Source of the DNA: an uncultured Gammaproteobacteria bacterium
GTDB taxonomy: Bacteria; Patescibacteriota; Patescibacteriia; Veblenbacterales; UBA10138
Reading direction: 5' to 3'
DNA: 35,201 nucleotides
NCBI GenBank assembly: GCA_964530635.1
Contig: CAZGYI010000001.1
Span: 1 to 35,201 of the forward strand
Shown: in pieces, positions 9,523 to 23,150 of the stretch
How positions within the stretch are numbered: the first letter of the stretch is position 1
Layout: every line of letters starts with the position of its first letter
Notes under the pieces: generated by a model
Told to the model about the DNA's origin: nothing
Databases searched by the model: none
Seen by the model: only the letters and a program-made list of their open reading frames with translations
Translations under genes and position numbers: made by a program

Positions 9523-9904
9523 TGGTGGAGATGGCGGGAATTGCACCCGCGTCTAAGATGATGCCCCTTACTTGTCTACAGACATAGTCTGATTAATTTT
9601 GGCAGAAGTCAAATCAGACAAAAGCCCCTACCAAGTTGTCCTAGTATACTTTGGTTAACTGTTAGGACGCCAGCTAACCTGGCTCGATAAATGACGCTCT
9701 ATAAGACTATCGAGATCATCCTGCAGAACGGCTTCTGCTTAAAATTAAGCAAAAGCTGGTGCTAGAGTAAAGCCTGCAAAAGCATTCTTTACCCGAGCGA
9801 CAAATGATTTGGCATTTGTACAAGGTATCGCTTTTTTAACGAAGAGGCGAACACTTCGGTCTGCTGAATAAAGTTAATCAGCTTATCAATTGTTAAACAT
9901 CCCC
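9523..9904 (-). ncRNA. ssrA: tmRNA (SsrA), one-piece
   Basis: 5' end GGGGATG pairs with the 3' end CATCTCC, including the G3:U pair. T-arm GCGGG-TGCAATT-CCCGC followed by ACCA. The tag frame ends ...FAGFTLAPAFA-TAA, with the stop at 9747-9745. It lies next to smpB. Confidence 0.9.
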
Positions 9905-19095: not shown

Positions 19096-19266
19096 CTACC
19101 ACAACCGGAAATTAAAAATTTTTTTATCTTTACCTGAAAAAAATAATGACAAACCCTTAAGTACAGCGACGACCGGCGTTCTTTTTCTATTATCTTCTAA
19201 GCAACGCCACGATTTACCATAAGTATGATAGCGTCGTTTATTGGAACCAAGATTCAATTCCTGCAT
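19096..19266 (-). CDS. Possible small basic protein (56 aa), below the track cutoff
   Basis: Hand translation gives MQELNLGSNKRRYHTYGKSWRCLEDNRKRTPVVAVLKGLSLFFSGKDKKIFNFRLW. No Shine-Dalgarno seen and no family recognised. Confidence 0.25.
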   Translation of the reverse strand: MQELNLGSNKRRYHTYGKSWRCLEDNRKRTPVVAVLKGLSLFFSGKDKKIFNFRLW

Positions 19267-19420
19267 ATTTTTATTTTACTATTAGTTTTTTAGTTTTTGA
19301 TTTACTCTTTAATTATACATCAAACTTTAAAAAAAATCAAGTTAAAACAAACTAATGGATTGGCCTTGAATAAAAAAAATAACCATGTTACTATACATTC
19401 GCTTGCAATTTTTATCTTTT

Positions 19421-19682
19421 GGGCCCGTGGTGCCCCGAACAAGTCCGCTTGTGGCGGACAGTACGGGACGGGTAGCCTGGTTAACTCCGAAGAAGTTTCG
19501 CTTCGCTCAACTCTACGGGGCACTGCACGTTACCAAGTTGATGATAATTCTAAACAAAGCGGGCTCGTGGTGTAGCCCGGTTAACACGTCTCCCTGTCAC
19601 GGAGAAGATCGCCGGTTCGAATCCGGTCGAGCCCGCTTTGTTTAGAAGATCGTCCCGATTGAAATCGGGATCGGGCCCGCCA
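19421..19682 (+). ncRNA. Expanded tRNA-Asp-like cloverleaf enclosing the functional tRNA-Asp gene; candidate structured RNA or decayed paralog
   Basis: Acceptor stem GGGCCCG (19421-19427) with CGGGCCC (19672-19678), followed by an encoded GCCA. D-stem GTGC (19430-19433) with GCAC (19520-19523). Anticodon-stem TCTAA (19549-19553) with TTAGA (19643-19647). T-arm-like TCCCGA-TTGAAA-TCGGGA (19653-19670). See findings. Confidence 0.4.
19561..19635 (+). tRNA. tRNA-Asp (anticodon GUC)
   Basis: Hand-folded cloverleaf: GGGCTCG-TG-GTGT-AGCCCGGTTA-ACAC-G-TCTCC-CTGTCAC-GGAGA-AGATC-GCCGG-TTCGAAT-CCGGT-CGAGCCC-G. CCA is not encoded. Confidence 0.9.
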
Positions 19683-19795
19683 CCCTTCGCTAATCTCCTA
19701 CGTTAAAAACTTCGGAAGATCAAGAAGCTACGGGATGGTAAGCAGGTATATTTTGGCCATCTCCACCAACTGGCGGATGAAGGTGATTTTTAGGT
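19661..19795 (+). repeat. Family Z copy 1: tRNA 3'-end-like sequence plus a conserved downstream block and a weak terminator
   Basis: GAAATCGGGATCGGGCCCGCCACCCTTCGCTAA ... AGCTACGGGATGGTAAGCAGG parallels 20604-20656. It carries a roughly 32-nt extra insert. It ends CCACC..GGTGATTTTT. Confidence 0.45.
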
Positions 19796-19811
19796 AAATG
19801 GTTATATTAAG

Positions 19812-19840
19812 TTGACAAAATCTATAGGTAATAATAAAAT
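19812..19840 (+). promoter_or_regulatory. Sigma70-like promoter of the 19902 gene
   Basis: TTGACA (19812-19817), a 17-nt spacer, then TAAAAT (19835-19840). GGAG lies about 9 nt before the ATG. Confidence 0.65.
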
Positions 19841-19901
19841 ATCTTAAAACACAAAAATTAAATTATGCCCTTTAACAAAGATTAGAAAAGGAGATGTTTA
19901 T

Positions 19902-20438
19902 ATGTTATATAAATCTTTATACACTACAGCAAGGTTTGCCATATTGGCGAGTATTTTAATCTTATTAACATCTGTACCATTTGGATGTATCAACGACGAT
20001 GACGATCCTTGCGCTGGATTGGGTAATGTAGAAAATATAAGTTACAAACAAAAGGAAATACCAAAAGTAGGTAGTACTGACAGTTCACTAAAAATAAGAT
20101 ATACTTATGTACCAGATAAAATTATAAAGGCTAACGACCCCTTTTCAGGGTGCCTTCCAGACCTTCAAGGTCAAACTTATAACATCAATCCAAACAGCGC
20201 CTGGGTAACAGTATTTATTTATGTTGAAAGAGCAAGAGATTGGTATGTAAAACCACTCTATATTGAGAGGTTAACTAAAATTGAACAAGATGGAACATTC
20301 AATGTCCGCTATTTTGATAGTCAAAGTGAAATAATCAATGCCTACATAGTAAAAAATGGTTATATGCCCGACGAGCACGATTTGCCAGACATGAATGATC
20401 CACAAGTACTAGCCGGGGTAACAATAGATAGGAGATAA
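19902..20438 (+). CDS. Hypothetical secreted protein or lipoprotein
   Basis: 178 aa. Signal-like FAILASILILLTSVPFG followed by Cys (imperfect lipobox), then an acidic DDDD stretch. Has its own promoter, Shine-Dalgarno and terminator. Confidence 0.7.
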   Translation: MLYKSLYTTARFAILASILILLTSVPFGCINDDDDPCAGLGNVENISYKQKEIPKVGSTDSSLKIRYTYVPDKIIKANDPFSGCLPDLQGQTYNINPNSAWVTVFIYVERARDWYVKPLYIERLTKIEQDGTFNVRYFDSQSEIINAYIVKNGYMPDEHDLPDMNDPQVLAGVTIDRR

Positions 20439-22658: not shown

Positions 22659-23150
22659 ATGGCGCGGTTAGGTGGCGATAAAATATTTGGCAAGATTGAT
22701 CCTAGCAAAATTGGAACGGGTAAATTTTTTACTCAAGGAAAATATAGCAGCCGAAAAAACACTTTAGGATTAAAAGGGCAACTTAGCCAACTTAAACGTT
22801 TGGGTAAAAAAGATACTACAGCCAATCTTTCACAAAAAAATATTCAACAATTTTATGGTTTAATCAGTGAAAGACTTAAAGCCAAAACTAAACATTATTC
22901 AGCTTTTATTACTCGCCGAGACAAAAAGCTAATTATGGGCGCGGCGGAAAAAATGGTAAAAACCAAAGGCGCAAATTTCACTAGAGAAGATAAAAAAGAT
23001 TTAAAATCAATGGTGGACACCATGCGCCTAAAACAGCGGCCACAAATTTTACGCGCAACCGAACCTGCTGTTGCCAACGAAAGTATTATTGAACCACCTG
23101 CCGATATTGCTAAAATCTCCAGGTTTAACAGAAATTGCCACGCCCACTAA
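22659..23150 (+). CDS. Hypothetical basic protein, possibly the 5' part of a frameshifted gene
   Basis: 163 aa, Lys/Arg-rich, no family recognised. The last roughly 10 codons (SRFNRNCHAH) look non-native, while an overlapping frame continues plausibly. Confidence 0.55.
   Translation: MARLGGDKIFGKIDPSKIGTGKFFTQGKYSSRKNTLGLKGQLSQLKRLGKKDTTANLSQKNIQQFYGLISERLKAKTKHYSAFITRRDKKLIMGAAEKMVKTKGANFTREDKKDLKSMVDTMRLKQRPQILRATEPAVANESIIEPPADIAKISRFNRNCHAH

Follow-up and report, generated by a model that had tools for sequence, protein, structure and literature searches.

The locus described here lies in a DNA stretch of 35,201 nucleotides (nt) from an uncultured Patescibacteria bacterium (assembly GCA_964530635.1, contig CAZGYI010000001.1, positions 1 to 35,201), referred to below as the window, with a GC content of about 36%. 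At positions 19421-19682 a complete tRNA-Asp gene is nested within the separated pieces of a second tRNA-Asp copy. The locus was compared with related loci and contigs, which are labeled by L-numbers. All related sequences recovered came from Patescibacteria (candidate phyla radiation, CPR) metagenome-assembled genomes (MAGs). The inner gene (19561-19635, + strand) was identified as a functional tRNA-Asp(GUC) without an encoded CCA by both ARAGORN and Rfam, and its score against RF00005 (66.1 bits, E = 2e-12, gathering score 29) places it in the tRNA family. It displayed the anticodon GTC, C38 and the discriminator G73 (= G19635), and its 3' end (19635/6) is followed by CTT, not CCA. This agrees with the initial annotation, which had been made from the sequence alone and had called a normal tRNA-Asp at this position.

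The inner tRNA is enclosed by two arms, TTCTAAACAAAGC (19548-19560, + strand) and GCTTTGTTTAGAA (19635-19647, + strand), here called the clamp. As annotated initially, the arms are complementary (13/13 positions) and extend the acceptor stem without a gap, giving a helix of 20 bp in which C19560 pairs with G73, the first base of the right arm. An identical 13-bp clamp was found in L071 and L334. In an alignment of the clamp-tRNA-clamp segments of six loci (the window, L071, L098, the inner layer of L334, L067 and L099), standard pairs occupied 93% of the cells of the 20-pair helix, and 10 of the 20 pairs were altered on both strands. When one strand was slid by 1-3 columns as a control, pairing fell to 24-51%. 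The window and L098 differ at four positions of the 13-bp extension, all four of them compensated. A survey in which species-representative genomes were scanned with the anticodon-to-T-arm sequence of the window tRNA gave at least 119 tRNA-Asp loci, and among the 118 CPR loci scored from the matches listed, clamps of at least 8 bp were confined to loci with leftover tRNA pieces. Because the helix covaries across the six loci, the clamp does look like the one part of the locus that is under selection. How RNase P and RNase Z gain access to tRNA ends buried in a 20-bp helix is a question posed by the covarying clamp.

The outer copy begins with a 5' piece (19421-19433, + strand), which by direct reading consists of the acceptor strand GGGCCCG (19421-27), TG and GTGC. 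Its GGGCCCGTGGTGCCCC is found again 5' of the functional tRNA-Asp in L334 (2375-2391), L071 (7086-7103) and L098 (2303-2319). At the outer D-loop position the minimum free energy fold contains a hairpin insert (19434-19467, + strand; CCCG...CGGG with the inner stem GTCCGC/GCGGAC), and a CCC(G)...(C)GGG hairpin follows GGTGC at the same position in L071, L334, L098 and L107. The D-loop remnant of the outer copy, GTAGCCTGGTTAAC (19472-19485, + strand), matches at 14/14 positions the D-loop that the functional tRNA-Asp has in L071 and L334, and differs by one base from that of the window's own inner tRNA. The filler from the outer D side to the clamp (19486-19547, + strand) holds a hairpin CGAAG/CTTCG and CGGGGCAC in the centroid fold. 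An 8-bp helix is formed between GTGCCCCG (19430-37) and CGGGGCAC (19516-23); the outer D-stem GTGC/GCAC of the initial annotation is found within this helix, with GCAC at 19520-23 instead of 19516-19. A filler block, TACGGGGCA.TGCACGT, resembles L334 2811-2830 in an alignment that scored just about 2.4 standard deviations over shuffles.

The right arm of the clamp runs into AGATCG (19647-19652, + strand), a variable-loop remnant of the outer copy. Here the window has AGAAGATCG in common with the pseudo-tRNAs of L334 (2453-2461) and L071 (7122-7130), which lie 5' of an open reading frame (ORF) encoding a GIY-YIG nuclease. The hairpin TCCCGAT-TGAA-ATCGGGA (19653-19670, + strand), which belongs to a family CCCGAY...RTCGGG, comes next. 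The outer 3' end (19672-19688, + strand) is composed of CGGGCCC (19672-78), G19679, CCA (19680-82) and the native flank CCCTTC, and is identical in 17/17 positions to L334 3079-3095, where the 3' end CGGGCCCGCCACCCTTC closes the outermost layer. The outer acceptor GGGCCCG/CGGGCCC is paired at 7/7 positions. The acceptor, AGATC, the hairpin, the discriminator G and the encoded CCA were all present as listed in the initial annotation. Upstream of these pieces, a block (19365-19413, + strand) with TTGAAT-17-TACTAT followed by CGCTTGCA matches L071 6994-7042 and L334 2292-2340 at 44/49 positions, in intergenic DNA that has diverged from both. Judged from its position and conservation, this block is probably the promoter of the whole locus; a consensus promoter scan did not pick it up, as its score was under the threshold.

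RNAfold gave -120.2 kcal/mol for the locus (z = -5.4), and 0/200 dinucleotide shuffles folded as well. The fold recovered the 20-bp helix together with the outer acceptor and the hairpin at the T-arm position. With GAAA in place of the inner tRNA, the fold of the outer shell was unchanged and z was -6.2. The nested arrangement is real and lies far past chance. The outer shell was not recognized as a tRNA by the programs used: in a permissive cmscan of 19250-19900 against Rfam (E up to 10), RF00005 matched the inner gene alone and the rest was noise, and ARAGORN called one tRNA over the whole window and none in the outer shell.

The inner and outer copies represent different alleles, with T5:A68 in the inner and C5:G68 in the outer acceptor and one further difference in the D-loop. 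Both acceptors, GGGCCCG/CGGGCCC and GGGCTCG/CGAGCCC, are common in CPR tRNA-Asp genes, and the outer allele of the window (C5:G68, D-loop CCTGG) is the inner allele of L071 and L334. Double substitutions in three stems had been taken in the initial annotation to argue against random decay. The compensated differences are most simply explained by descent from two different working tRNA-Asp alleles, and so do not demonstrate selection on the outer fold. One of the three stems, TCTAA/TTAGA, annotated initially as the anticodon stem, belongs to the clamp helix, which in L071 and L334 is not placed in an anticodon-stem context.

The window, L071 and L334 share a large upstream gene (51% identical in L334) as well as the 3' flank GGGCCCGCCACCCTTC. 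Both relatives have a stand-alone GIY-YIG ORF of 88 aa, which is missing from the window. In L071 the pseudo-tRNA is contiguous and consists of GGGCTCGTGGTGC, a hairpin, GGAGAAGATCG, TCCCGATATCAATCGGGA and a broken acceptor. It is followed by the GIY-YIG ORF, the clamp, the tRNA, the clamp and another 3' part laden with hairpins; the outer end with GCCA has been lost. In L334 the order is pseudo-tRNA, GIY-YIG ORF, the left arm of a first clamp and a 5' tRNA part with an insert, then a complete tRNA-Asp nested between the arms of a second clamp, then a 3' part of a tRNA whose T arm is canonical, the right arm of the first clamp and the outermost 3' end with GCCA. The outer acceptor of L334 has an A:C mismatch, and the pieces are split by a 330-nt ORF. 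The L334 locus and L348, a second assembly of the same organism, resemble a Russian doll of two to three layers, with one extra exact 109-nt tandem copy of the 5' part in L348. The outer 5' piece of the window aligned with the 5' part of the L334 pseudo-tRNA and, less convincingly, with a block in the second layer of L334. Because L071 and L334 order the same blocks differently, the outer shell of the window is one of several permutations and not a conserved RNA gene. The outer cloverleaf had been proposed initially as a selected tRNA-like RNA, and this was not supported by the comparison: the pieces are permuted among relatives, and neither the outer acceptor nor the 3' end is maintained in the nearest ones. 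Covariation in relatives was found for the clamp, and in this respect the idea of a processing scaffold is partly right.

Some further observations were made on these relatives. The 109-nt difference lies at about 947-1177 of L348 (reverse complement) against L334 2741-2861; the two assemblies came from different samples, and the difference reflects either a population polymorphism or a repeat-collapse artefact. The reading frames of the GIY-YIG genes of L071 (7169-7435) and L334 (2501-2767) continue across the left clamp arm and end within the tRNA (C-terminus ...SKQSGPVV), so RNase P cleavage of the transcript would remove the stop codon. A meaningless ORF of the window (19297-19575) has the same tail, SKQSGLVV.

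The hairpin at 19653-19670 is not peculiar to the window. The motif CCCGAYN{2,8}RTCGGG occurs once in the 35-kb window against an expectation of 0.02. TCCCGAT-N3-4-ATCGGGA was found 10-100 nt upstream of the GIY-YIG ORFs of L071, L334, L029 and L335-L339, and the same hairpin was found inside the pseudo-tRNA copies of L340 and L341. A covarying variant stands 5' of the GIY-YIG ORF of L026, and a member of the family lies beside most of the GIY-YIG genes that were inspected. Which arm the hairpin replaces varies with the locus (the T arm, the anticodon arm or part of the D loop), at tRNA-Asp as well as tRNA-Gln. Stem variants changed on both strands include TCCCGAC/GTCGGGA, TCCCGC/GCGGGA, TCCCGCC/GGCGGGA, CCCCGCC/GGCGGGG and AGCCGAT/ATCGGCT. 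The hairpin of the window had been described initially as T-arm-like. Descent from a decayed T arm was rejected, since the same module replaces D and anticodon arms elsewhere, including those of pseudo-tRNA-Gln. A scan of viral sequences with TCCCGATN{3,5}ATCGGGA returned 120 matches, one of them within an ordinary tRNA-Ala and none near a GIY-YIG ORF, and gave thus no evidence of phages carrying the hairpin together with the nuclease gene.

The L071 ORF consists of a GIY-YIG domain alone (PF01541, E = 3e-18). It had 106 homologs of 80-135 aa (all but a few of 80-115 aa), almost all from CPR genomes. In all nine independent loci inspected in detail, the GIY-YIG ORF was located about 20-200 nt from a tRNA or pseudo-tRNA. 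The neighbor was tRNA-Asp in L071, L334, L029, L099 and L107, and tRNA-Gln downstream of dnaX in L335-339, L340, L341, L342-344 and L345-346. Two additional matches detected by tblastn only follow a transfer-messenger RNA (tmRNA) gene (L026) or adjoin tRNA-Gly (L078), and a third, weak one (L093) has no tRNA near it. The ORFs start 5-35 nt past the 3' end of the tRNA or pseudo-tRNA, which leaves no room for a promoter of their own, and are flanked by partial or full pseudo-copies of the local tRNA. In L345, for example, a pseudo-tRNA-Gln with its anticodon arm replaced by CCCCGCCTCGGCGGGG is followed by the ORF, the real tRNA-Gln and a partial copy with the same replacement. GIY-YIG ORFs were found in 4 of 119 CPR tRNA-Asp loci among the matches listed, in different classes, and their presence at the one conserved site is sporadic: the ORF is found in L071 and L334 and is absent from the window.

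tRNA-Gln loci with a GIY-YIG ORF and pseudo-tRNA-Gln copies downstream of dnaX were seen in several Parcubacteria-type genomes (L345 1413-1940, L341 1150-1470, L340 1400-1900, L335 2318-2820, and L339 1-600 and 2560-2914). In the pseudo-copies a GC hairpin stands in for the anticodon arm and, in some cases, for the D loop or T arm. L339 contains two such ORF-bearing units within 2.6 kb. In L026 (3277-4038), a Falkowbacteria MAG, the GIY-YIG homolog is located 3' of the tmRNA gene, with a TCCCGCC-GAAG-GCGGGA hairpin between them.

Among the matches of the tRNA-Asp survey listed, an encoded CCA was present in 95 of 118 CPR loci, nearly all without extra pieces. Extra tRNA-Asp fragments were detected in L001, L013, L029, L036, L055, L065, L067, L071, L098, L099, L106 and L107 among the matches listed, and likewise in L207 from a metagenome. 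L207 was the sole real match of a metagenome scan with AGATCGTCCCGN{3,16}CGGGAT, in which about 119 of 120 matches arose by chance in high-GC DNA; the same pattern gave chance matches alone in viral contigs. A recurrent module consists of a CCA-less tRNA-Asp, a 12-nt spacer and a copy of the 3' two-thirds with hairpins in the anticodon loop and T arm, ending in the acceptor 3' strand, G and CCA. The modules of these arrangements occur sporadically in Saccharibacteria, Berkelbacteria, Liptonbacteria and unclassified Patescibacteria. L055 and L065, labeled as Saccharibacteria and Gammaproteobacteria MAGs respectively, contain extra tRNA-Asp copies beside a normal one (about 190 nt upstream in L055, about 60-170 nt downstream in L065), with inserts of about 70-80 nt within the T loop (TTC|insert|..ATCCGG), an insertion point different from that of the window. 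In L029 (2786-2862, - strand) the second tRNA-Asp called by ARAGORN is a chimera and an annotation trap: its 5' two-thirds are identical to the real gene, the hairpin module has taken over the T-arm position, and the 3' strand of the acceptor does not match its 5' strand.

Considering the anatomy of the locus, the block homology to rearranged relatives, the association of GIY-YIG and tRNA genes, and the covariation of clamp and hairpin, we propose that the window holds an ORF-less derivative of a GIY-YIG cassette that splits a resident tRNA gene and supplies a clamped replacement tRNA, a reading to which we assign a probability of roughly 55%. The cassette, intact in L071 and L334, would comprise a promoterless GIY-YIG ORF of about 85 aa, which would use the tRNA promoter, and a complete tRNA-Asp whose acceptor stem is lengthened by a clamp of 8-25 bp. 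Its insertion would split the resident tRNA-Asp, leaving the 5' part by the promoter and shifting the 3' end, with its encoded CCA and native flank, downstream; the D, anticodon or T arms of the leftover halves would be exchanged for the GC-rich CCCGAY..RTCGGG hairpin. A split resident and a cassette with its own tRNA are suggested because the inner and outer copies are different alleles that are swapped in L071 and L334. The locus of the window would accordingly run from the 5' part of the resident and the D-loop hairpin through filler to the incoming tRNA-Asp of a different allele, held between the two clamp arms, and on to AGATC, the element hairpin and the resident's 3' end with GCCA, in a copy that lost, or never had, the nuclease ORF. 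Of the three explanations offered initially, a relic of repeated integration at this tRNA came closest to the comparative data.

As a mechanism, the nuclease might cut intact tRNA genes, and repair might then copy the cassette in with the tRNA halves as homology arms. The hairpins would destroy the nuclease target, provide an immunity or binding site, or stabilize or process the downstream mRNA. The clamp would keep the pseudo-halves, which compete for pairing within one transcript, from disturbing the fold of the working tRNA, and would serve as a processing entry, with RNase III-like cleavage followed by RNase P, RNase Z and CCA addition. Repeated invasion would yield Russian-doll tRNA genes. 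The outer halves of the window may still be transcribed and processed; the outer cloverleaf as such would be without function if the locus arose in this way. More tentatively, and with somewhat less confidence than we have in the single locus, we suggest that Patescibacteria hold an undescribed selfish "tRNA replacement cassette", in which a minimal GIY-YIG gene on a tRNA promoter breaks the resident tRNA, turns the leftover arms into the CCCGAY..RTCGGG hairpin and is made harmless by the complete clamped tRNA.

Several points speak against the cassette. The window has no GIY-YIG ORF or remnant detectable by tblastn, and the link is therefore carried by homology of the non-coding blocks. Site-specific cleavage of tRNA genes by the GIY-YIG protein is putative. 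The proteins consist of the catalytic domain only, with no DNA-binding or second domain; they reached 25 bits against a cut-off of 56 for the group I intron endonuclease family TIGR01453, and the closest solved structures are the uncharacterised UPF0213 proteins 1ywl and 1zg2. The cassette's own functional tRNA should be a nuclease target as well, and its immunity is unexplained. Some of the structural variation is plainly tandem duplication that needs no nuclease. The hairpin and the hairpin-laden anticodon inserts are kept across distant lineages (L013/L071, L067/L334), and the pseudo-tRNA pieces could thus be functional. No empty site from a close relative was recovered by homolog search with the 727-aa neighbor. 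Close relatives of the window are few, this search having found the window's own record and the L334 organism alone, and every sequence used is a metagenome assembly.

Clear tandem copies speak for local duplication by slippage or unequal recombination at short repeats in or around tRNA-Asp, with decayed copies and the GIY-YIG gene as an unrelated passenger. Besides the exact 109-nt copy by which L348 differs from L334, the 3' piece in L207 and a pseudo-tRNA-Gln in L341 each occur twice in tandem, L098 repeats the tRNA 3' end with about 75 nt of flank, and the window has no nuclease ORF. We nevertheless consider this unlikely, as the alleles of the window differ by a compensated acceptor pair, which is unexpected of a recent local copy, the clamps are perfect and covarying, one hairpin replaces different arms at tRNA-Asp and tRNA-Gln mostly beside a GIY-YIG ORF, and all nine GIY-YIG loci inspected adjoin a tRNA gene. 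Rather less probable still is a functional shell, whose outer pieces would remain joined by the acceptor and D-like helices after release of the inner tRNA by RNase P/Z or RNase III, as a CCA-ended, anticodon-less tRNA mimic acting as a processing signal, mRNA stabiliser or cassette decoy. The perfect 7-bp outer acceptor with G and CCA, the fold scores (z = -5.4 and -6.2) and the 3' end GGGCCCGCCACCCTTC, matched 17/17 in L334, would fit such an RNA. The exchange of pseudo-tRNA arms for stable hairpins in many lineages is oddly regular and not random decay, some inserts are conserved between distant lineages, and the GIY-YIG ORFs begin 5-35 nt past tRNA or pseudo-tRNA 3' ends. However, L071 lacks the outer 3' end and its upstream pseudo-tRNA acceptor is broken, L334 has the A:C mismatch and pieces parted by the 330-nt ORF, and the pseudo-copies of L341 lack the acceptor 3' strand. 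Rfam detected the inner tRNA alone at E up to 10, and the "covariation" between outer and inner stems is accounted for by allelic origin.

tRNA genes are the usual integration sites, the displaced 3' end with its native flank (19672-19688) resembles an attR, and in L335 the 3' end of tRNA-Gln recurs as a direct repeat beyond the GIY-YIG ORF. Debris of a tyrosine or serine integrase element that entered the 3' half of tRNA-Asp, duplicated this half and was later lost is nevertheless very improbable: no integrase domain was found in the eight neighboring ORFs, the inner tRNA and the outer 3' piece are just 12 nt apart, a 5' fragment is present too, which is not an integrase product, and the displaced piece holds the hairpin module, not a repeat of the inner T arm. 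An assembly chimera of a repeat-rich metagenomic region deserves just as little credence. All data are MAG contigs, the repeat number differs between L334 and L348, and contig L349 ends about 190 nt upstream of the locus; yet the clamp-tRNA-clamp unit and its flanking blocks were found in independent assemblies from different samples (L071, L334, L348), and the repeats are shorter than typical reads. Three other candidates were rejected. A two-piece tmRNA does not fit an acceptor GGGCCCG with discriminator G; the tmRNA sits elsewhere (9523-9904, - strand) and no tmRNA match was obtained at the locus. A group I intron was dismissed for want of a ribozyme core, since no group I or II family matched 19250-19900 at E up to 10 and the insert is a tRNA with a 13-bp helix. 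In an archaeal-type tRNA intron or split tRNA a bulge-helix-bulge would be expected, and the junction helix (19548-19560/19635-19647) is continuous with the acceptor and has none.

In the rest of the window, the ORFs are mostly without Pfam matches, with DUF5663 and Lgt as exceptions, and exact-protein look-ups of both ORFs flanking the locus gave no match on record. Two ORFs between the tRNA locus and lgt, 19902-20438 (178 aa, lipoprotein-like N-terminus) and 22659-23150 (163 aa), have no counterpart in the syntenic L334. The tmRNA is full length (RF00023, 101.7 bits); the whole-window ARAGORN run was silent on it, and its architecture may be unusual.

If the cassette reading is true, it describes a new route by which a selfish gene enters an essential single-copy RNA gene, via a whole spare copy, unlike introns, which splice themselves out, or integrative elements, which rebuild the 3' end. 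It would also explain the odd tRNA-like fragments and the "missing CCA" tRNA-Asp genes in CPR genomes. If it is wrong and the shells are functional, they would represent a new class of anticodon-less tRNA mimics. Some ARAGORN tRNA calls in CPR genomes are chimeric pseudo-genes, such as the first tRNA-Asp call in L029, and a stand-alone 85-aa GIY-YIG domain with apparent tRNA-gene specificity would be of enzymological interest. The full-text literature searched (on CPR tRNA introns, GIY-YIG with tRNA genes, and nested or pseudo-tRNAs) contained no description of a nested tRNA or cassette arrangement of this kind, in keeping with the initial annotation. To our knowledge, none of the nearest precedents, which are compared below, unites a minimal nuclease with target halves that carry hairpin substitutions and a full replacement tRNA held by a clamp.

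Phage T4 SegB is reported to be a GIY-YIG site-specific endonuclease in a tRNA gene cluster (PMC2330249). The CPR loci resemble it in that a GIY-YIG gene lies among tRNA genes, is patchy among relatives and is co-inherited with neighboring tRNA sequence. SegB has about 220 aa and a DNA-binding part, whereas the CPR proteins have 80-115 aa with the catalytic domain only, and their cleavage activity is putative. At the CPR loci, moreover, the target gene is split, its arms have become hairpins and a complete clamped tRNA is supplied. With integrative elements in tRNA genes (attL/attR) the window shares the displaced resident 3' end with native flank and the retention of a functional tRNA. It differs from them in having no integrase or island, in the supply of a whole tRNA instead of a 3' segment, in the presence of 5' fragments, and in its nested layout, as opposed to a simple direct repeat.

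In archaea such as Nanoarchaeum and Caldivirga, tRNAs may be split, tri-split or intron-containing (cited in PMC10714607). There, as in the window, tRNA parts lie apart in the gene, and long complementary leader helices join or hold the pieces. The archaeal functional tRNA is made by a splicing endonuclease at a bulge-helix-bulge, whereas the window comes from a bacterium and its helix is perfect; there the uninterrupted inner copy supplies the functional tRNA, and the split copy is apparently dead. The long covarying helix that brackets the mature ends recalls the processing stems of rRNA, the RNase III helices at 16S and 23S, with the difference that RNase III cleavage at the clamp is only presumed. 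We know of no flanking processing helix as a feature of bacterial tRNA genes. A parallel within the phylum is provided by CPR rRNA genes with endonuclease-bearing insertion sequences (PMC11270868; Tsurumaki et al. 2022, cited in PMC10714607), which are reported to be mobile introns of group I or II, some of which encode homing endonucleases. In both cases structural RNA genes are invaded by endonuclease-bearing inserts; at the window locus, however, nothing restores the interrupted tRNA, and a second copy replaces it.

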